A stretch of DNA of 64,000 bases. It comes from a virus. The notes beneath the pieces were generated by a model, which was not told the DNA's origin, made no database searches, and saw only the letters and a program-made list of their open reading frames with translations. The stretch lies in UHGV virus genome UHGV-0034108. One strand, 5' to 3'. The translations under genes and the position numbers were made by a program. Of the stretch, positions 4,680 through 47,195 are shown piece by piece. Position 1 is the first letter of the stretch. Each line of letters opens with the position of its first letter.

Positions 4680-5882
4680 ATGGCAGAAACAAAACTCAAT
4701 TTCAAAAAGGTAGCGTCCTATCCAACGTCAGGTGTGACTGCTGGAGACGTTATCTTCTGCACAGGAGACCACACGATTTATGTGGCAACTGGTGCAACAA
4801 CAAAGGAGGCGTTCTATGGTGGACGCATCAAGGATATCAAAGTAGTTGAGAATGGCGTTCACGACAATCTCGTTATTTCGTATCTTGATGGCACGGCAGA
4901 CCTCACTATCGACTTCAGCGACATCAACAACACTCTTGCTGAACTGGATCAAAAAATCAGTCAACTTGAAGCTAAGGCTCCAGTTGCTGGAAAGGATATT
5001 GATATCACAGGAGCAAACAATGCAATAGATGTTGCCCTTGATGAAGCAATTACCGTAATGGGAGTTTCAGTTGGCACTCTTGCTAATGGGTCAACACTTA
5101 CTAAAGGTATGAGCCTTTCTGAAATTCTGAAGAAGATTCTAATCAAAGAGATTGATGCAAAGGTTGGTGCACTACCATCAACAAAACTTAATGTATCAGG
5201 CGTGGCATCAGGTGGCACTTATGAGGTGGGAACATCTCTTACTGCAACACTGTCACATACATATACCGATGGTAAGTTTGTTGGTGCAGATTCATTGTAT
5301 CAGTACAATCTGGCTGCTGGTTGTGCCGAAGGTATAACTACGTATAACTTTGATACAACAAACGTAACTTCACCACATACATTTGTTGTTACAGAAGGTG
5401 GTCATACAATGAATTGTAAAACAGCTTATGGTGCAAGTACAGCAAAACCAAAGAAGAATAATGGAACAGCATCATCTGTAAGTATTCCTGCTGGAACTGC
5501 TACTTCTGCAACATTTAGCTTTACAGGTAAGTTCTATGGATATGTGGGTTATTCTACAAAGACAGCAGGTTCTCAGTTTGATTCAGCATCTATCAAGAAG
5601 CTTGCAGCAGCAAAGCAGTATCTTACTGTTAATGGCAGCACCACGCTTCTCTCTGGTGGAGCTACTTCAGACGGAACATCAATAGTCATTGCAGTACCAG
5701 CAACGTACAAACTTTCAGGAATACAGAACTCTCTTGGAGTTTCAATTCTTGAGAACTTTAATGCACCAGTGAATGTGAACTACACCAACGGAGAAACAAC
5801 TACTGCATACAAAGTATATGTTTATCCTATCACATCAGGTGCAAAGGTGGCATACAAGAACGTGGTAATTACAAAAGCTTAA
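4680..5882 (+). CDS. tail fibre-like protein (shares N-terminal domain with 7610..10885)
   Basis: N-terminus KLNFKKVASYPTSG..GDVIFCTGDHTIYV resembles LKFNKVKTLPTSG..GDVFFVSSEKKIYI of the large fibre; Ser/Thr/Gly-rich body. Confidence 0.55.
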   Translation: MAETKLNFKKVASYPTSGVTAGDVIFCTGDHTIYVATGATTKEAFYGGRIKDIKVVENGVHDNLVISYLDGTADLTIDFSDINNTLAELDQKISQLEAKAPVAGKDIDITGANNAIDVALDEAITVMGVSVGTLANGSTLTKGMSLSEILKKILIKEIDAKVGALPSTKLNVSGVASGGTYEVGTSLTATLSHTYTDGKFVGADSLYQYNLAAGCAEGITTYNFDTTNVTSPHTFVVTEGGHTMNCKTAYGASTAKPKKNNGTASSVSIPAGTATSATFSFTGKFYGYVGYSTKTAGSQFDSASIKKLAAAKQYLTVNGSTTLLSGGATSDGTSIVIAVPATYKLSGIQNSLGVSILENFNAPVNVNYTNGETTTAYKVYVYPITSGAKVAYKNVVITKA

Positions 5883-11280: not shown

Positions 11281-11754
11281 ATGGATTGGATTCAGATATT
11301 GACATTGATTTTAGGGTTTCTCGGTGGAGGTGGGGGGTTAACTGCCCTTGTCACTATCAGGTCGCAACAGAAGAAAGCAGGAGCGGATGCAGATAATGCA
11401 GCAATCACAGCTCTGAACAATGCTATTACTACAATGACAGGAATAGATAATGACAAGGACAGGGAAATTGCTGATTTGAAAACTGAGAACTCCGGGTTGC
11501 GTACTCAGATAGGTGACTTGCAGAAACAGATTGCCGACAAGCGTTGCGAGTGTACGACAAAGAGTTACTACATGTGTGTACACCAAGGTTGTGTACTTCG
11601 ACGTCCGTCATTGGGTCGTGGTAAGAATTACTTTTCAGAGCATTGGCAGGATGCTGATTTCGGAGCAGACTTCTATACTGTTGAGGAGCTTCTTGATGAA
11701 TATAGAAAGAATAACGTATTAAAACTTATAGAACACAATGGGAACGATAAGTAA
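11281..11754 (+). CDS. membrane-anchored coiled-coil protein, lysis-associated
   Basis: N-terminal TM (ILTLILGFLGGGGGLTALV), then coiled coil; overlaps endolysin start. Confidence 0.4.
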   Translation: MDWIQILTLILGFLGGGGGLTALVTIRSQQKKAGADADNAAITALNNAITTMTGIDNDKDREIADLKTENSGLRTQIGDLQKQIADKRCECTTKSYYMCVHQGCVLRRPSLGRGKNYFSEHWQDADFGADFYTVEELLDEYRKNNVLKLIEHNGNDK

Positions 11755-13234
11755 AAATTTCTCTTATGCGGAGTTTGAAAAGACGGACGTACCTGGAATG
11801 CAGGTGAAGAATACGATAACATCAGTGGATGTCCGTGATAGTATCAAAGAACTCGTTGATACTGTTATACAGCCGCTCAGAGATGCGTGGGGAAAGCCTC
11901 TCGCTATCAACAGCGGCTACAGATGTCCGGAAGTAAATCAAGCTGTTGGAGGTGTTCCTACCTCACAACATTGCTTTGACACAGATACGGAAATTCTGAC
12001 AAACAACGGTTGGAAGACAAGTACTACAATTTCAATCGAAGATTTGGTATATACATATAGTTTTAGTTATGGAAGCATAGAACTCAAAGCGATTAACGAA
12101 ATTATACATAAACCATTTGTCGGTGAATTATATCACATCAAAAACAAACATCTTGATGTGATGTGTACCGATAAACATAATGTTATTGTTCGTTATGATA
12201 ATCATAAGTATCAACGCAAGGGAGTGAATAAAATTACGGCAGAAGGGCAGGCTTATTTTGATTCACTGAAAACCAATAATGATCAATTTCATCTTGAAAA
12301 AATGGAAGAGGTCGCGGGCAAAAGGCGACATTTCATGACTTGTGGCTACACGTCCGAAACTACAGACTATGATGTTATGTTTATGAAGTTCGTGATGGCG
12401 GTTGTGGCTGATGGCTACTTCGGTTTCCATTGTGGTAAGACGCCGTACATCGGCTTTCATGTTAAGAAGGAGAGAAAAATAACATACCTCAAAGTCTTGA
12501 TGAAATTGAATGGGATAAAATATTCAGTCAGAAGAGAAAAGGATGGCACTTATTATTTCTATATCGGAAAATCAGTTGCTGACAAGGTATTGGAAATCAT
12601 AGGCAAGAAAAAGAACATCCCTTATTATATTCTAAAGGCAGACGTTAGGACATTACGTGAACTGGTTGGTACATATACTTTTTTTGATGGACATTGTGAT
12701 ATACGTCACGGCAATATTGGTATTAGTATATCTACTGTAAATGCAAATAACGCCTCTGTTTTGCAGGCAATGTGTGTGCTGTCAGGTATGCGCTGTATAT
12801 TATCATCAAAAATACCGGAATTGGGGAGTATCAGAGGCGTGCAGATAAAAACTGCACAACGAGTATATAGTTTGTCAATCTGTCCAGATAAAATAAGTAG
12901 CAAGTTCAAGGAAGATAGTTTTAAGAAGGTCCATTACAGTGGGGAGGTTTGGTGTATTCGAGACGATAATGACACCGTCATCGTTCGCAGGAATGGCAAG
13001 GTTTCTTTGCAGGGGAATTGTAAGGGCGAGGCAGCAGACGTGTGTCCGTTCGGAAGAAATGGTAGTGGCAATGTAGATGTCATCAGACAGCTTGCACAGA
13101 AAGCATCTGAATTGAAACTCCCATTCGATCAGATGATTCTCTATCCTACGTTTGTTCATTTCTCACACAAGAAGAATGGCACTCAAAGAGGACAAATACT
13201 TTATAACAAAAGATATACAGGAAAGAAACTATGA
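11738..13234 (+). CDS. peptidase M15 family endolysin precursor containing an intein
   Basis: Exteins join to ..TSQH|CKGEAADV.. = SxHxxGxAxD zinc motif plus downstream FVHFSH; 349-aa insert between. Confidence 0.75.
   Translation: MGTISKNFSYAEFEKTDVPGMQVKNTITSVDVRDSIKELVDTVIQPLRDAWGKPLAINSGYRCPEVNQAVGGVPTSQHCFDTDTEILTNNGWKTSTTISIEDLVYTYSFSYGSIELKAINEIIHKPFVGELYHIKNKHLDVMCTDKHNVIVRYDNHKYQRKGVNKITAEGQAYFDSLKTNNDQFHLEKMEEVAGKRRHFMTCGYTSETTDYDVMFMKFVMAVVADGYFGFHCGKTPYIGFHVKKERKITYLKVLMKLNGIKYSVRREKDGTYYFYIGKSVADKVLEIIGKKKNIPYYILKADVRTLRELVGTYTFFDGHCDIRHGNIGISISTVNANNASVLQAMCVLSGMRCILSSKIPELGSIRGVQIKTAQRVYSLSICPDKISSKFKEDSFKKVHYSGEVWCIRDDNDTVIVRRNGKVSLQGNCKGEAADVCPFGRNGSGNVDVIRQLAQKASELKLPFDQMILYPTFVHFSHKKNGTQRGQILYNKRYTGKKL
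11972..13018 (+). mobile_element. intein with LAGLIDADG homing endonuclease domain
   Basis: Starts CFDTDTEILT (block A), TDKH (block B), LAGLIDADG-like VMAVVADGYF and LVGTYTFFDGHC, ends ..NGKVSLQGN followed by Cys+1. Confidence 0.75.
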
Positions 13235-26190: not shown

Positions 26191-26805
26191 TTAATGAATC
26201 CAATGATCTCCTATACTTGCTTCTGCCGGAATAGGAAGTTTCTTATAGTATTTTGCTGCTGCTTTTGCCATGATATCTTGCATAACTTTGGCAAAATCTT
26301 CTGCAATTTCTTTTGGACATTCGCAGTCACATTCATCGTGGACCATAACACAGAACAATATAATTCCAAAGTAGCCATGTTTGACTATCCACTCAAAAAG
26401 GTCTGCGGCAGCTTGTTTAAGCACAATGGCACTACCTCCCTGTATAGGATAGTTGAGCACATTCTTTCCAAACCAGTCATGTCCTTGTCGTAGGTGTTTG
26501 ACAACCATCTGTGCAATATCATCACCTGTCCCTTTATGATATAGGTTATAATCCTGCATAAATCGCCAATCAATTCTGTCCTCAACAGCACGCCATTCTG
26601 CCCATTGAGGCCAATAAACCCTATGACCGGTGGTACTGTTGATGACAATATACCCATGCTTTGCAACGAAATCAGACGCCTCTTTCTTGAATTTAGCCAT
26701 ACCAGGCATACCTTTAAGAAGATTTTGGACCATTTCTCTTGCTTTATCTATAGACATGCCTATATTTGCTGATATTGATGTGCCATCAGAACCATATCCT
26801 ACTGC
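26191..26805 (-). CDS. DNA polymerase I family (family A) exon 2
   Basis: AVGYGSDG..(motif B continuation), NYPIQGGSA, motif C VMVHDE; aligns with Taq pol motif B/C region. Confidence 0.7.
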   Translation of the reverse strand, partial: AVGYGSDGTSISANIGMSIDKAREMVQNLLKGMPGMAKFKKEASDFVAKHGYIVINSTTGHRVYWPQWAEWRAVEDRIDWRFMQDYNLYHKGTGDDIAQMVVKHLRQGHDWFGKNVLNYPIQGGSAIVLKQAAADLFEWIVKHGYFGIILFCVMVHDECDCECPKEIAEDFAKVMQDIMAKAAAKYYKKLPIPAEASIGDHWIH

Positions 26806-28037
26806 CATTTTGTTATCTTAAAAGCTCTTTATCTTTTAATTCTATATGTTTCCATATAGTTCAGACTATATCATCATCCTCATATTGAGGAGTCGAGCAC
26901 TCGTGTTCCCATTATTAAGTGAGCTTTTCAGGGATTAGTCGTTGAACCTTCTATCTACTTTTATGCTCTTCGATAGCTTGGCTGCTGATTACCGTAGATT
27001 TCTCCTTAGGCTTCCAGCAATTCACTCGATTTGCTACACGAAATTACTTTCGTGAGGTTCACTAAATTCTGATATTTATATTCATGACAATAGTAAGGAT
27101 TTGCATATAAGTAATGAAGAAGAAGTGTTAAATTGGTTTTATCATAAACAAATAAAGTATAGCAGTCTTTAGTGTTCAGACGGACAGTACTTTTTATGCC
27201 GTATGATTCAAGAAAAGTTTGAATGCGTAAAAGCCATTGTTTTGAACATGACTTTAATCCCCAACGATAATGACCGCAAGTTCCGTCTCCATCAAAATAG
27301 CCACGAATCATGTCCCATGTTATATCTATACATGGATTCAGATTGTGATGTTTTTTTGAAGCAATATTTAATGTGGCGGAGAACCAGTCTGCTATTTGCT
27401 TTGAATTTATACTTGCATTGTACATATAATGCATTTCACCACATTGTGTTGTGTAAGGTCTGCTAAATATGGAAACTCCATTTCCAAACCAGTCCTTATA
27501 CTTCAATACCACATATTCTTTTCCTGAATAAAGCACTATGCGATGAGAACGTGATGTATTTGTTATATGTCCATCTGCGAATATATATCCTAACCAATAA
27601 TTAGCCTCTATTGTGTTGTTTGCAAACTTATTTTCCCATGTATTATTTCTGCCAGAGCCACGCATCTGCAATCCGAGTCTATGTACATGCCAAGTTATAG
27701 TACTGCTTTTGATGTTAAAAGCGTTACCAATTTCTTGATATGTGCAGTTAGAATAATACATTTGTGTGAATAAGTCATCTTGTTCTTTTGACCAACTTTT
27801 TTCTTCTTCTCGTGTTCTTTTTATGTTATTCCTTACTAATACATCATATACAGTAGTGACGGAACATGAATATTTATCTTGAAGTTCTTTCCAAGACATA
27901 CCGTTAGCATAATCAGCTATAAGTGCAGTATCATTTACTTTTTTCATATTTATTTTTTTGCAAGTTTAGTTGATTTAGACTTCCGTATTCTTGTTCAAAA
28001 TAAATCACTTACTGTTTATAAATCATTTTGTTAATGT
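26806..28037 (-). mobile_element. group I intron (inferred) carrying LAGLIDADG homing endonuclease, inserted in polA motif B
   Basis: Exon1 stops 4 codons after ..RQKAKSAEF; exon2 resumes with AVGYG; free-standing endonuclease ORF between; splice sites after U (..GAGUUU) and after G (..AAAAUG) fit group I rules; boundaries +/- few nt. Confidence 0.55.
27006..27947 (-). CDS. LAGLIDADG homing endonuclease (intron-encoded) with N-terminal HTH domains
   Basis: LGYIFADGHIT and IRGYFDGDGTCG motifs; two HTH-like segments at N-terminus. Confidence 0.8.
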   Translation of the reverse strand: MKKVNDTALIADYANGMSWKELQDKYSCSVTTVYDVLVRNNIKRTREEEKSWSKEQDDLFTQMYYSNCTYQEIGNAFNIKSSTITWHVHRLGLQMRGSGRNNTWENKFANNTIEANYWLGYIFADGHITNTSRSHRIVLYSGKEYVVLKYKDWFGNGVSIFSRPYTTQCGEMHYMYNASINSKQIADWFSATLNIASKKHHNLNPCIDITWDMIRGYFDGDGTCGHYRWGLKSCSKQWLLRIQTFLESYGIKSTVRLNTKDCYTLFVYDKTNLTLLLHYLYANPYYCHEYKYQNLVNLTKVISCSKSSELLEA

Positions 28038-29501
28038 AAACTCGGCGGATTTGGCTTTTTGCCGCAAGTCTGGTCTCAATTTCTTGACATCATGGACATC
28101 TACATCCTTCAGCTCATCCGGAAAACATAGTTTAGCATAGAGATTATGAGTATCTATACCGTGTGCAAAGGCATCGAGGAGTTTCTTTTCGTTCCACACA
28201 TCTGCCTGTACACGCGACTCCTCAGCGGAGAAATCACAGGATATGAATAAGTTACCTTTTTCCGCTATGAAGCAAGAACGACATACCTTACCATATTCAT
28301 CTCGTGCTGGAAGATTCTGTAAGTTTACAAATTTTACCTGTTCTGGAAGAAGTACCTTCAATCTTGCAAGGTCAACATTGTTCTTATTGCTTCCGCAGGA
28401 CATTCGTCCAGTCACAGTACCAATTTGCTTGAACTCGGTGTGAAGTCGTCCTGTATTTGGATTGATAAGATTCAGGTGTCCTTGCCCATAAGATGTGACA
28501 TTCTTCTCAGCGCCCTTATAGCCGTAATAGAGTTCAAGAAAATCATCAGCAATTCCTTTCTGTGTAATTATCAAATTTTCCAATGCAGAGTCACGCTCTT
28601 CCTTAGTTTTCTTATCACGTGTAGTGGTATTGAATCCCAAAGCTTGCATTACAGGTATTACTTGACGGGAACTACTCCATTGTACAAACACATCGGGAAG
28701 TGCGTTATCTGTAGGCTCAAAAAGTGAAGGTTGTGTTACTGAAGATACAAATTGCTTGTTGAGTTTCGTATTTGACCTAACGTAATCATCAAGTTTCTGT
28801 TTGTAATCTTCAAGCTCCTTCTTGTCACTTTCCATCTTTGCCTTCCACTGAACTTCATCGAGCTTCACTCCACACCATTCGAGATATGCTATTGCAGGAA
28901 CAAATCTATTTTCTACAATAAAAGCACGAAGGCAATTACGATTTTCCGCAACAATCATTTGCGCTTTTCTGATATCTTGCAGGTACATGACATCATGTGC
29001 AGCATAGATAATACCCTCCGGTGTCAGTCCTTTAAGAGCAATTTCTTCCTGAAAGGATTTGTCTATAACAATTCCTGTATTGCGTTCAAGAACATCTCCG
29101 AGATTGAACGACACTATACCTGGCTTATAACCAAGATAGAGTGTTTGTTCGCAGATCATCGTATCATAAACACGCAACGGTATAATTTTGTGATTATACA
29201 GAAACTTGAGGTCAAATTTGAGATTATGTCCAATCAGATATGAGTTTTCAATAATCCCCTTGTACTCTTCCGGCTTGACAGATAGACAGTCTACAACTAT
29301 TGCAGTAGTCTCACCGGAATTAAAATCTTTATAACCAAACTGCATTGACGTAAGAGTGTTTACATGACAATCAAGTCCTGTTGTTTCAGTATCGAACTGT
29401 ACTACAGGCCAACCACGAATGAGGTCTATGCTTTCCTGCACAGTCAAAGGGCTTACATTCTCATCCGAAATGTCAAGCCTGTCACTAACGAGATAAATCA
29501 T
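28038..29501 (-). CDS. DNA polymerase I family (family A) exon 1: 3'-5' exonuclease plus polymerase motif A and start of motif B
   Basis: Exo I FDTETTGL; motif A ISCDFSAEESRV; ends RQKAKSAEF (motif B R..AK...F). Confidence 0.75.
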
Positions 29502-45295: not shown

Positions 45296-46324
45296 ATGAT
45301 TACGCAATGTTATACCTAAACTCGTTTTTATAAGCCAAGGCAGCGACCACGAGCCTATCAAAGAGTTTGTCTCCGAATGTCCTGCGGTTGAACTTGTAGC
45401 AGAACTCGTTCAGATAGCTTTGAAGGTAGTCGGGTCTGATGTCGTGATAGACGTCCAGCAGGAGCCGTTTTGCGTTGCTGATTGCGATATGAACCCACGG
45501 GAGTAGCTTACCGACCTGCTTTGGCTCTATGACCTGATGCACGTGTTTACTTACGAGTGACTTTATATTTGTATATGACGTTGAATCGTCAGAAGTTATG
45601 GTTGAACTTGGATTGACATACATCCTCACCTTTCCGTCAATGGTTTCCGACTTGAGATCGTTGATGACGAGCATCTTGATGTGCTTGACTGCGGTAGGCT
45701 TGTCGGAGGTTTTCTTCTGAGTCCCATCGGAGGTCTCGGCCAGGACGAGGACCGCAGTTTTCTTCTGGCTTCCGCGCCCGCGTTTCTGCGGCTCGTCCTT
45801 CTTGCCCTCAGGGGTCTCGGTGGAGAAGAACCCCTCGTCCATCTCCACTATCCCACACACCTGGTATTGCGCGTCCCGCTTGCCCATGATACTCCGAAGC
45901 TTATGAAGCATCGCCCAGATTGGCATATAGTTCTTGTGACCCAGCTGACGCTGGAGCTCCGATGCGGAGAAACTCTTCCGCGTCGAGGTGAGCAGGTGCA
46001 TCGCCGTGAACCAGTACATCAGTGGCAGTTGGCTGCCGTGCATTACCGTATTCGCCTTCAGGCTCTGGCGGTAATGGCAGCCCTTGCACTCGAAGCATTT
46101 CTTATCCTTCTTCCAATAGTGCTCCGTGCAGCCACACTTTGGACAGACAACGCCCTGCTTCTCCCTGTATTCCCTAAGCTTGTTCTCGCAGCTTTCCTCA
46201 TTGGGAAACTCCTGCATAAAGTCTATAAGTTTCATTGTATCTTCGTTTGTTGGGACAAAGATACTGTTCGACTGTGCAAAAACGCTGCGCAAGTTATGAC
46301 TTAGGTATAACATTAATTATTCAT
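45296..46324 (-). mobile_element. IS1595-family insertion sequence
   Basis: Perfect 14-bp inverted repeats AATGTTATACCTAA at 45306..45319 and (rc) 46305..46318, extended imperfect IR to about 24 bp; single transposase ORF. Confidence 0.7.
45300..46235 (-). CDS. IS1595-family DDE transposase with N-terminal zinc ribbon
   Basis: CPKCGCTEHYWKKDKKCFECKGC zinc ribbon; likely start at Met27 MKLIDFMQEF inside the IR. Confidence 0.7.
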   Translation of the reverse strand: MKLIDFMQEFPNEESCENKLREYREKQGVVCPKCGCTEHYWKKDKKCFECKGCHYRQSLKANTVMHGSQLPLMYWFTAMHLLTSTRKSFSASELQRQLGHKNYMPIWAMLHKLRSIMGKRDAQYQVCGIVEMDEGFFSTETPEGKKDEPQKRGRGSQKKTAVLVLAETSDGTQKKTSDKPTAVKHIKMLVINDLKSETIDGKVRMYVNPSSTITSDDSTSYTNIKSLVSKHVHQVIEPKQVGKLLPWVHIAISNAKRLLLDVYHDIRPDYLQSYLNEFCYKFNRRTFGDKLFDRLVVAALAYKNEFRYNIA

Positions 46325-47195
46325 AATTTTTATTTGTTTCGACCGAGGATTCTCATCCTCACGCACTATGCCTGACGACTTTTTATACTCGCATAGTCGA
46401 GTTACCCTTGCTTTTTCCTGAGAGAAATATTATATTATTATAATATTTATCTCCCTTTAAAGAAATATAAAACTTTCTGTATAAGGAGGGGTCTGGGGAA
46501 CCACCGGAAATCAAATCCCCCGGAAATCTCAAAAATCCGGGGAATTTCATTCCTGATGAGAGAAAGGACGAGGAGCGGAAACCTACCAGGGAAGAGACAG
46601 TCTACCTCTCGAACAGAAGAAAGACCAAAGCTATTTCTCTTGGTCCTTCAAGAAAGCCTTGAAAGCTTTTAACTCTGACTTCTTCACGGGATAAAGAAAC
46701 CCCATAAAGCAAACCAGAACAAGTCTTTCCTCAGGCTTTTTAGTATTTGATTTTTCCATGGCAGAATCAAAGAGCTAAAAATCAAGAAGTTAAGAATCAG
46801 ACTCACGCACGTGTATACGCACGCGCGAGGAAACCCGAGCCGGAAAGAGAAACTCCAAAACCGAGCGGCGACCGGTAAGCAATAGTTAAATGCGCCGGGC
46901 CCTTGGAGTCGGACTTTCGCGGAAAGGGCATAGAAATGGCCTTCTCAGCCGTTTTTTCTCTTCGGACGATAACTTATATGTCTGAGAAAAGATAATGGCT
47001 CAGAGGGGCATTTCTGAGGAAAGTCTATTTCTGACTAAAAAATCAAGGCGGAAATTCAAGTCAGAAATAGGCTATGGCAGTCGAATCAAACCTCAACAAG
47101 CCGTTGGGAGCAGGTTAAAGTCCATAAGAAAAACTTATGGATAAAGCCCGACTTTGGTAGTCAGTTGGGTCAGATTCGACTGCCAGTTGGGTCAG
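46325..47195. other. approx. 870-nt noncoding region rich in nested hairpins and direct repeats (candidate structured RNA or origin/regulatory region)
   Basis: No ORF over 60 aa; 12-bp IRs CTATTTCTGACT/AGTCAGAAATAG (47025..47036 / 47059..47070) and GGCAGTCGAATC/GATTCGACTGCC (47076..47087 / 47173..47184); 12-bp direct repeat CAGTTGGGTCAG x2; CCCCGGA/TCCGGGG hairpin; GC-rich blocks. Confidence 0.4.

Follow-up and report, generated by a model that had tools for sequence, protein, structure and literature searches.

Introduction

Group I introns interrupt the family A DNA polymerase (PolA) genes of several phages. In E. coli numbering they lie at site 674 in SPO1, SP82, Bastille and Pf-WMP3, at 676 in Xanthomonas phage phiL7 and at 881 in the T7-like phages PhiI and W31, and all of them carry HNH enzymes (PMC3428280). 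Here we describe an element in a 64,000-nucleotide stretch of viral DNA (UHGV-0034108, hereafter the window) that divides motif B of the PolA of a crAss-like gut phage, and which is very probably a mobile group I intron with a LAGLIDADG homing endonuclease gene. It resembles the introns of the Bacillus phages SPO1, SP82 and Bastille and of cyanophage Pf-WMP3 (enzymes I-HmuI, I-HmuII, I-BasI and I-PfoP3I), which are self-splicing and of subgroup IA, in its endonuclease gene and its position in a conserved segment of the PolA finger domain, and probably in subgroup as well; unlike the window element, they occupy site 674 and specify nicking HNH enzymes (PMC3428280). The introns of phiL7, PhiI and W31 are likewise phage PolA group I introns, but differ from it in their sites, 676 and 881, and in their HNH enzymes (PMC3428280). 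The position of the open reading frame (ORF) also differs. In Bastille it occupies 880–1446 of an intron at 687–1539, late in the core and apparently in P8, whereas the window ORF lies in the P1 loop. Phage introns mostly encode GIY-YIG, HNH, PD-(D/E)xK or EDxHD enzymes (reviewed in PMC3984707).

In crAss-like phages a high density of group I introns, recognized through their endonuclease domains, has been reported (Yutin et al., 2021, PMC7886860), and a figure legend in that paper mentions an intron-encoded LAGLIDADG protein. The interrupted genes named there for the Delta and Zeta groups are those for MCP, PolB, primase, ATP_43b and TerL, while the alpha-gamma group is reported to be without such insertions (PMC7886860). 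That work concerns the same phage order as the window; its passages on interrupted genes describe neither a PolA motif-B intron nor structure at the RNA level. An endonuclease gene in P1 has a precedent in the nuclear rDNA S1389 introns of myxomycetes, where it forms a sense extension of P1 (PMC8395846). Those introns differ from the window intron in residing in eukaryotic rRNA genes and in encoding His-Cys box enzymes, and the account of the S1389 extension does not describe an overlap between ORF and ribozyme core (PMC8395846).

Results

The polymerase gene is divided within motif B

The host gene lies on the minus strand and encodes a family A DNA polymerase that is cut within motif B, the O-helix. 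ORF 28023..29501(-), of 492 aa, matches Pfam DNA_pol_A_exo1 (PF01612) at residues 24–179 and then DNA_pol_A (PF00476), a match that stops at profile position 216 of 381; ORF 26191..26808(-), of 205 aa, takes up the same profile at position 219 and follows it to 379. The PHROG pieces abut at the split, with phrog_17 covered up to position 1070 by the exon-1 piece and from 1071 by the exon-2 piece. Exon 1 (28038..29501(-)) comprises the 3'-5' exonuclease domain, motif A and the first half of motif B, ending in RQKAKSAEF, and exon 2 (26191..26805(-)) begins AVGYGS and supplies the remainder of motif B and motif C (VHDE), up to the stop codon. An earlier reading of the window from its letters alone (the original prediction) had assigned these features to the two polymerase ORFs, with a third, endonuclease ORF between them. 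All three stand where it placed them, and the interval to which it drew attention, 26806..28037, is exactly the intron, which is 1232 nt long, on the minus strand, with its 5' splice site after U28038 and its terminal G at 26806.

On the minus strand the 5' junction reads ...GCCGAGUUU/ACAUUAAC..., that is, ...GCC GAG UUU/ACA UUA ACA AAA UGA... (the solidus marks the splice site here and below), and the 3' junction reads ...AACAAAAUG/GCAGUAGG..., that is, ...GAUAACAAAAUG/GCA GUA GGA UAU GGU.... If the RNA is left unspliced, the frame of exon 1 stops inside the intron, at the UGA at 28025..28023 that is contained in the first 15 intron bases (ACAUUAACAAAAUGA, 28023..28037(-)), to give a truncated polymerase. 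Joining 28038 to 26805 instead yields a polymerase of 692 aa with the sequence KSAEF/AVGYGS, the Phe and Ala codons flanking the junction. Because a shift of one base at either splice site alters the product, a single pair of U at the last exon position (U(-1)) and terminal intron G restores the frame, and it is the pair originally proposed, after GAGUUU and after AAAAUG.

The spliced polymerase has many uninterrupted counterparts. At E <= 1e-20 a large protein collection yielded 4604 homologues, of which the best 120 are uninterrupted, about 650–705 aa long and cover 94–100% of the query, and many of 683–705 aa among them cover it completely. The top homologue, P0001, is 94% identical and likewise 692 aa long. 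In an alignment with 40 uninterrupted homologues the junction region, KSAEFAVGYGSDGTSI, is free of gaps and in the same register, as the proposed junction KSAEF/AVGYGS requires. The contig encoding P0001, L001, is intron-less, and its exon ends are contiguous in the DNA, ...GCCGAGTTTGCAGTAGGATA..., that is, GAGTTT/GCAGTA, within the predicted target site AAATCAGCCGAGTTTGCAGTAGGATACGG; the insertion is therefore exact to the base. The polymerase genes of L001 and the window share 87.5% DNA identity and differ at 39 amino acids as against 260 nucleotides. We compared the two alleles for a co-conversion footprint, and mismatch density had no clear pattern near the junction; mismatches were somewhat rarer just downstream of it, from which we draw no conclusion.

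Alignment with Taq polymerase spans the DYSQxELR-like motif A, RxxAKxxxFxxxYG and VHDE, and in the junction segment sets PLMRRAAKTINFGVLYG against PDLRQKAKSAEFAVGYG. On this alignment the intron follows the Phe residue in the O-helix motif RxxxKxxxFxxxYG. We take the insertion point to be F667/G668 in Taq numbering and, presumably, F762/G763 of E. coli Pol I. In public assemblies the polymerase is called as two genes plus a hypothetical protein.

A complete group I ribozyme lies between the exons

The suggestion that the interruption is a group I intron was borne out when Rfam models were run on the minus strand. RF00028 (Intron_gpI) matches over its full length (model positions 1–253) at 26842..27087(-), with 92.4 bits and E 2e-22; this score is far above the gathering score of 50, so the signal is not due to chance. 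The match takes in only the last ~250 nt of the intron. The helices P3 to P9 can be drawn, including the P7 pseudoknot, and are backed by covariation.

P1 is formed by the 5' strand GUUU/AC (28036..28041(-)), made of the four final exon bases and the two initial intron bases, and by GUGAAC (27057..27062(-)), which holds the internal guide sequence GAAC and lies inside the endonuclease ORF as codons V-N. P2 (27037..27054(-)), also within that ORF, is the hairpin CACGAAA-GUAA-UUUCGUG with a GNRA loop. P3 pairs 27023..27029(-) with 26893..26899(-) and encloses P4, P5, P6/P6a, the 5' strand of P7 and P7.1. The P6a loop carries GAGC (26965..26968(-)), for which we propose, as a tertiary contact, the partner GCUC (26921..26924(-)) in the loop of P7.1, a hairpin at 26907..26934(-) between P7 and the 3' strand of P3. 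The guanosine-binding helix P7, a pseudoknot, pairs 26936..26942(-) with 26863..26868(-) and encloses P8 (26877..26891(-)) and J8/7. P9 (26842..26859(-)) has a GAAA tetraloop and P9.1 (26818..26839(-)) the invariant loop AUAAAGAG; both show covariation. The 3' tail, whose sequence is given above with the 3' junction, ends on the minus strand at G26806.

Extra hairpins, P7.1 and P7.2, between P7 and the 3' strand of P3 define subgroup IA, as in the IA2-like phage introns. The window intron has one covarying hairpin there, P7.1, and we did not identify a separate P7.2 in this interval; by the above definition the hairpin suggests that the intron probably belongs to subgroup IA. A 35-nt stretch of the Bastille polymerase intron, from the 3' strand of P7 through P9, is identical to the window intron. 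Together with a match of about 80% in Clostridium perfringens phages, this identity puts the ribozyme, by its sequence, among the common phage introns. The matching region is the 3' 180 nt of the intron (26805..26990(-)); the matches in phiCP13O, phiCP34O and vB_CpeS-17DYC lie within or beside genes for tape-measure or minor tail proteins, with a further one in CPQ4, which suggests unannotated introns of the same ribozyme lineage in those phages.

Covariation supports the structure and identifies the guide

We scored the hand-drawn P1–P9.1 structure on an alignment of 11 mini-introns (set A3), those of the window and of 10 related loci, each consisting of 8 exon bases, 6 intron bases, the stretch that begins 6 nt upstream of the guide and runs to the 3' end, and 6 exon bases. 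Standard pairs were present in 95.6% of 800 cells, and two-sided changes occurred in 45 of the 73 pairs. None of 500 shuffles reached any observed value, and when the 3' partners were slid by 1–3 columns pairing fell to 30–42%. Every pair of P2 (7/7) and P7.1 (4/4) shows compensatory change, as does every pair of P6a and of the loop–loop contact, where all four positions of GAGC x GCUC covary and 97.7% of cells are paired; P9 and P9.1 covary at six of seven pairs. P3 has four compensatory pairs, while P4, P6 and most of P7 are invariant. Pairing is 99–100% in P3, P4, P6, P6a and P7, with P7 at 100%. The last intron base is G in all 11 introns.

The splice-site U.G wobble of P1 is likewise present in 11/11, and the adjacent pair is A-U, G-C, C-G or U-A, depending on the locus. 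GAACC stands directly 5' of P2 in the introns examined (GAGCC in L092). Since this sequence is kept across two reading frames, being read as ..V-N-L.. (LVN) in the window and as ..L-E-P.. in L091, its conservation is at the level of RNA. Extension of P1 by intron positions +1/+2 with the bases 5' of GAAC also varies, from A-U/C-G in the window to AAGAA/UUCUU in L091, GAA/UUC in L257 and G-C in L328. The guide moreover tracks the exon: GAAC pairs with GUUU at the window site (+0), GAGC with GCUU in L092, where the splice site is displaced by 4 nt, and GACUG with CAGUU in L321, where it is displaced by 11 nt. These matched changes in the shifted introns identify the guide sequence beyond reasonable doubt. 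The original prediction had not located the guide, which lies about 975 nt into the window intron, past most of the endonuclease ORF, which places that ORF in the P1 loop and in overlap with the ribozyme core.

A local P1 near the 5' splice site had also been considered, in which GAAC/GAAUAC at about intron positions 42–53 (GAAUUC-like in relatives) would pair with GAGUUU. We rejected it because the element aligns with the upstream half of a promoter-like motif (see below), because it is missing from the ORF-less intron L328, and because it is the P2-adjacent GAAC that is kept in two frames and covaries with the shifted splice sites.

The intron encodes a double-motif LAGLIDADG protein

The homing endonuclease gene (27006..27947(-), 313 aa) matches Pfam LAGLIDADG_3 with 49.1 bits (cut-off 22.5) and, over residues 13–300, phrog_4645. 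Its two LAGLIDADG motifs are LGYIFADG (D125) and RGYFDGDG (D221), and both Asp residues are invariant in 27 homologues, as are G120, Y121, A124 and G126 around the first motif, G216, F218, G220 and G222 around the second, and K199. The AlphaFold model (pLDDT 88.9) has two alpha-beta-beta-alpha-beta-beta-alpha halves in one chain (residues 113–304), preceded at residues ~6–90 by two three-helix bundles (helices 6–14, 19–25 and 30–39; 54–65, 70–77 and 81–90). Foldseek returned I-Tsp061I, I-DmoI, I-WcaI, I-SceI, intein endonuclease domains and the bI3 maturase, all with probability 1.00. On this model the protein would be a monomeric enzyme that has both LAGLIDADG motifs in one chain and two helical bundles at its N terminus. 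This agrees with the original description of a 313-aa LAGLIDADG endonuclease with two N-terminal helix-turn-helix domains, which is upheld by the homologue alignment, AlphaFold and Foldseek alike.

I-DmoI, I-Tsp061I and I-SceI likewise have two LAGLIDADG helices and two halves in one chain; the window enzyme is 11–19% identical to them and differs in its ~110 extra N-terminal residues with the two bundles. Residues 10–90 give weak Pfam matches to HTH_23, HTH_28 and Sigma70_r4_2, and the N-terminal ~100 residues alone match phrog_8446, phrog_323 and phrog_1303, which comprise DNA-binding proteins, regulators and HNH endonucleases. This suggests that the N-terminal part is a DNA-binding module common to several nuclease families.

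The 3' end of the gene doubles as ribozyme. Its last ~27 codons cross the guide, P2, P3, J3/4 and P4, and the stop codon UAA (27006..27008(-)) falls in the internal loop of P5; in the closest homologues the C-terminus ..KS(G/S)ELLEA is the translation of AAAUCGGGUGAAUUGCUGGAAGCC. Upstream of the gene, 10–25 nt before the endonuclease ATG, eight loci share a bipartite motif, (T/G)TG-N20-21-TAnn(T/C)TTG, whose -7-like half in the window is TAAACTTG (27961..27968(-), 13 nt before the ATG). The housekeeping promoter consensus of Bacteroidetes is TTTG-N19-21-TAnnTTTG. The motif resembles it and is a possible internal promoter. Its short form, TANNYTTGYA, is without significant enrichment in the window (17 matches against 11.8 expected).

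Full, decayed, empty and intron-less alleles coexist

Homologues of the endonuclease form 112 clusters, all metagenomic. An exact copy of the protein occurs in 49 blocks of the collection, for the most part on contigs of 50–200 kb; a phage carrying this intron is thus common and, presumably, viable. All homologues whose context was checked (P0122, P0124, P0128, P0132, P0133 and P0169; 66–50% identity) split PolA motif B. Close relatives were drawn from Logan, ENA and NCBI by exact-protein look-up; a search of IMG/VR with the endonuclease alignment gave a best match of 38% identity and no useful close relatives. We also looked for the core patterns GGTTCAACGACTA...GATGATATAGTCTG and GTGAATTGCTGGAARCCTAA...GGYAATCAGCAGCC in viral and metagenome collections. 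Each returned more than 120 stretches, and filtering by tblastn left L257, L292, L321 and L328. To judge from these numbers, the core sequences recur in many phage introns and are not diagnostic for this family.

L083, L087, L089, L090, L091 and L257 use the window site exactly. L257, among the matches listed, has a 48%-identical endonuclease splitting PolA motif B; L328, also among them, has at exactly the window site an ORF-less intron of 261 nt, whose P1 has 5 bp and a loop of 8 nt and whose guide lies 10 nt from the splice site. By comparison the window intron has about 970 nt inserted in the P1 loop. A further one of the matches listed, L292, is a 341-nt intron at the window site that retains only a remnant of the endonuclease, the last ~25 codons. 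In L092 the sole in-frame solution with U(-1) and terminal G lies 4 nt downstream, GAGUUUGCUU/...UUG/UAGCUUAUGG, and yields EFALAYGG, the sequence that its close relative L292 also gives when spliced at the usual site. L321, among the matches listed, has a 31%-identical endonuclease and a site at +11 nt.

The coexistence of full, decayed, empty and intron-less states is, on these sequences, the pattern expected of a homing element. As for a mobile intron, an intron-less allele exists at 94% amino-acid identity, and the same exact site is occupied in diverged hosts.

The endonuclease gene of L092 (3501..4445) is broken by standard-code stops, its longest ORF being 154 aa. Stop-codon recoding is known in crAss-like phages, and these stops could reflect either recoding or decay. 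In three metagenome contigs, L283, L323 and L324, PolA genes of this group are seemingly interrupted elsewhere, at sites around residues 385–427 in the numbering of the window protein; the endonuclease there is a different one, sharing only 23% identity with the window enzyme.

Two sequenced phages carry comparable arrangements. In the Leptolyngbya phage Lbo-JY46 (L334; PP438436.1, 36976..39939), motif B of PolA (RQKAKSAGF...NYGGNG) is again the place of the split, and the intervening LAGLIDADG ORF, though shorter (253 aa), shares 33% identity with the window enzyme (E 6e-24); a P9.1-like hairpin and a GAUAAC...UG tail resemble those of the window intron. The splice site suggested by the frame lies about 5 nt further downstream, and the record annotates three unrelated genes. 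Rfam gave no group I match at this locus even at E <= 1, and the insert is either a divergent intron or something else. In cr116_1 (L093; NC_055882.1, 33303..36278) two 'DNA polymerase I' genes of 598 and 78 aa surround a 229-aa 'endonuclease'; the split is at a different site from that of the window intron and is not annotated as an intron, and Rfam gave no match there at the gathering threshold. Nor did Rfam match the Bastille intron. As a known intron is missed in this way, the model evidently fails on introns whose core contains a large ORF, and such Rfam negatives mean little.

The host is a crAss-like phage

The portal, large terminase and major capsid proteins of the window match crAss-type PHROGs. 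Among Crassvirales the spliced polymerase is 39% identical to that of Kolpuevirus 'frurule', 38% to that of cr116_1 and 31% to that of crAss001, so that by polymerase similarity the phage appears nearest to Steigviridae (39% to Kolpuevirus). Contigs with close homologues are ~70–100 kb long, and one relative is in a 'Bacteroidales bacterium' genome bin. No close phage genome was found in the isolated-phage collection, and megablast of the whole locus against isolated phages gave short intron-core matches only (Clostridium, Staphylococcus and Bacillus phages).

Two of the related loci carry a tyrosine integrase gene (Phage_integrase, Arm-DNA-bind_5) a few genes downstream of the polymerase, at 5411..6571 in L089 and 5752..6984 in L090. 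Since crAss-like phages are usually regarded as non-integrating, this was unexpected.

Discussion

Proposed splicing and homing

We conclude that the element is, with little doubt, a mobile, self-splicing group I intron, probably of subgroup IA, that carries a homing endonuclease gene in the PolA of a crAss-like phage. P1 would form in the polymerase transcript by pairing of GUUU/AC with the guide GUGAAC, ~975 nt further on. The ribozyme that follows, 255 nt in length (P2–P9.1, with the P7 pseudoknot and the contact between the P6a and P7.1 loops) would bind guanosine and cut after U28038, and the exons would then be ligated after G26806 to encode the 692-aa polymerase, in a two-step, guanosine-initiated reaction guided by P1 and P10. 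The endonuclease is expected to cut intron-less alleles of co-infecting relatives at or near the boundary of ...GCCGAGTTT and GCAGTAGGATA..., and repair from an intron-carrying genome would copy the intron into the cut allele by gene conversion (homing). Anatomy, exon junction, RNA covariation, endonuclease fold and the coexistence of allele states are established here, whereas guanosine splicing, cleavage and gene conversion are inferred from what is known of the reactions of group I introns and of LAGLIDADG enzymes.

The ORF extends into the 5' half of the core, so a ribosome passing along it would be expected to unfold the ribozyme, and a single RNA could then either be spliced or yield the endonuclease, but not both. 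The conserved promoter-like motif suggests that a separate internal transcript may supply the endonuclease. A wider idea, which we put forward tentatively and think less likely than not to hold in full, is that the motif-B introns of crAss-like PolA genes form a stepwise retargeting series (+0, +4, +11 and perhaps, in a cyanophage, +5 nt), with the ORF acting as a translation-controlled splicing switch. If both parts were true, phage introns would have a regulatory arrangement not described before, and the series would offer a workable system for studying how introns and homing endonucleases gain new sites.

Several observations weigh against the intron reading of the locus. Both splicing and endonuclease cleavage are deduced from sequence, and P1 pairing must span about 970 nt. 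P10 is short and weak (1–3 bp), although its first pair is kept in 10 of the 11 sequences through four pair types. P8 pairing is just 61.8% in the alignment; we think that this is due to the alignment register, each sequence being able to form a hairpin there. The 11 sequences are all related, so that shared ancestry inflates the shuffle control, but neither the slid control nor the count of pair types depends on it. The promoter, read from conservation among eight related loci, is only a lead.

Alternative explanations

The intron might splice while its LAGLIDADG protein is not, or not only, a homing endonuclease but a maturase that aids folding of P1 and the core, as the LAGLIDADG proteins bI3 and I-AniI do. 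The bI3 maturase is among the best Foldseek matches, and closure of P1 across about 970 nt might need help. This role is nevertheless improbable, though the likeliest of the alternatives: D125, D221 and K199 are invariant in 27 homologues, the patchy presence of the intron among close relatives suits active homing, and ORF-less ribozymes persist at the same site in L328 and L292, where the RNA presumably acts independently of the protein.

The polymerase could also be made as two separate polypeptides that assemble, the endonuclease gene being free-standing and the RNA unspliced. Gene callers in public assemblies do return three genes, exon 2 happens to begin with ATG, and cr116_1 and Lbo-JY46 are annotated as split polymerases with an intervening endonuclease. 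Yet the gene is broken halfway through the O-helix motif RxxxKxxxFxxxYG, and the two pieces are separated precisely by a complete group I ribozyme that shows covariation. The apparent start codon of exon 2 is ATG, GTG, TTG or ACG in relatives, which is accounted for by its G being the conserved terminal G of the intron. Exon 1 continues for only four codons past the junction (TLTK*, where the asterisk is the stop), which leaves no room for split-intein halves. Such halves were not found at the fragment ends, where exon 2 starts at the junction and no Pfam intein domain is present. We therefore regard two polymerase subunits as very unlikely. Slightly less probable still is that the intron has decayed and no longer splices, leaving a polymerase pseudogene in a defective or mis-assembled genome. 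Nothing specific favours it beyond the stop-broken endonuclease ORF (in the standard code) of the relative L092, while in the window copy every core helix is intact, the same endonuclease recurs in 49 blocks, mostly on 50–200 kb contigs, and the exons are conserved at the protein level (39 amino-acid against 260 nucleotide differences from L001). Separate subunits and pseudogene fragments had been named at the outset as findings that would undo the prediction, and the data support neither.

Relation to known introns

A mobile, self-splicing intron remains the preferred reading, and it is well supported that the element is of a known kind, while the PolA O-helix site with a LAGLIDADG enzyme is new relative to the studied sites 674, 676 and 881. 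We found no paper on this element in the open-access literature. The locus adds PolA to the genes in which crAss-like phages are reported to have introns, here in a lineage closest to Steigviridae by its polymerase, and recognizing the intron restores one 692-aa polymerase and removes a false 'split polymerase' from very abundant gut phages. It also provides a comparative set of 261-nt ORF-less, full-endonuclease, +4 and +11 nt forms, which might be of use in ribozyme engineering or yield new nucleases that recognize long sites and bear add-on helix-turn-helix modules. The P1-loop location, the overlap of ORF and ribozyme and the stepwise retargeting of the guide are of moderate specialist interest; the current understanding of group I intron function is unchanged.

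Other elements in the window

The original prediction counted the intron endonuclease as a second LAGLIDADG element of this phage, independent of an intein at 11972..13018. The intein is plausible from the translation of the plus strand, and the insert shows no sequence similarity to the intron endonuclease. It lies in an M15 peptidase (endolysin-like) ORF, 11738..13234(+), as an intein-like insert at about 11972..13018 with the edges TSQH/CFDTDTEIL...SLQGN/CKGEAADV, inside the peptidase M15 motif. The insert contains two LAGLIDADG-like motifs, and its removal restores the metal-binding motif SxHxxGxAxD; Pfam matches the peptidase of this ORF in its N-terminal part only.

Elsewhere in the window, Rfam detects a pistol ribozyme (RF02679) at 46338..46402(-), with 55.7 bits against a gathering score of 34.5. 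The match ends 25 nt upstream of an ORF (45300..46313(-), 337 aa) for an IS1595/ISXO2-like DDE transposase (Pfam). A self-cleaving ribozyme beside a transposase in a crAss-like phage may merit a look of its own.

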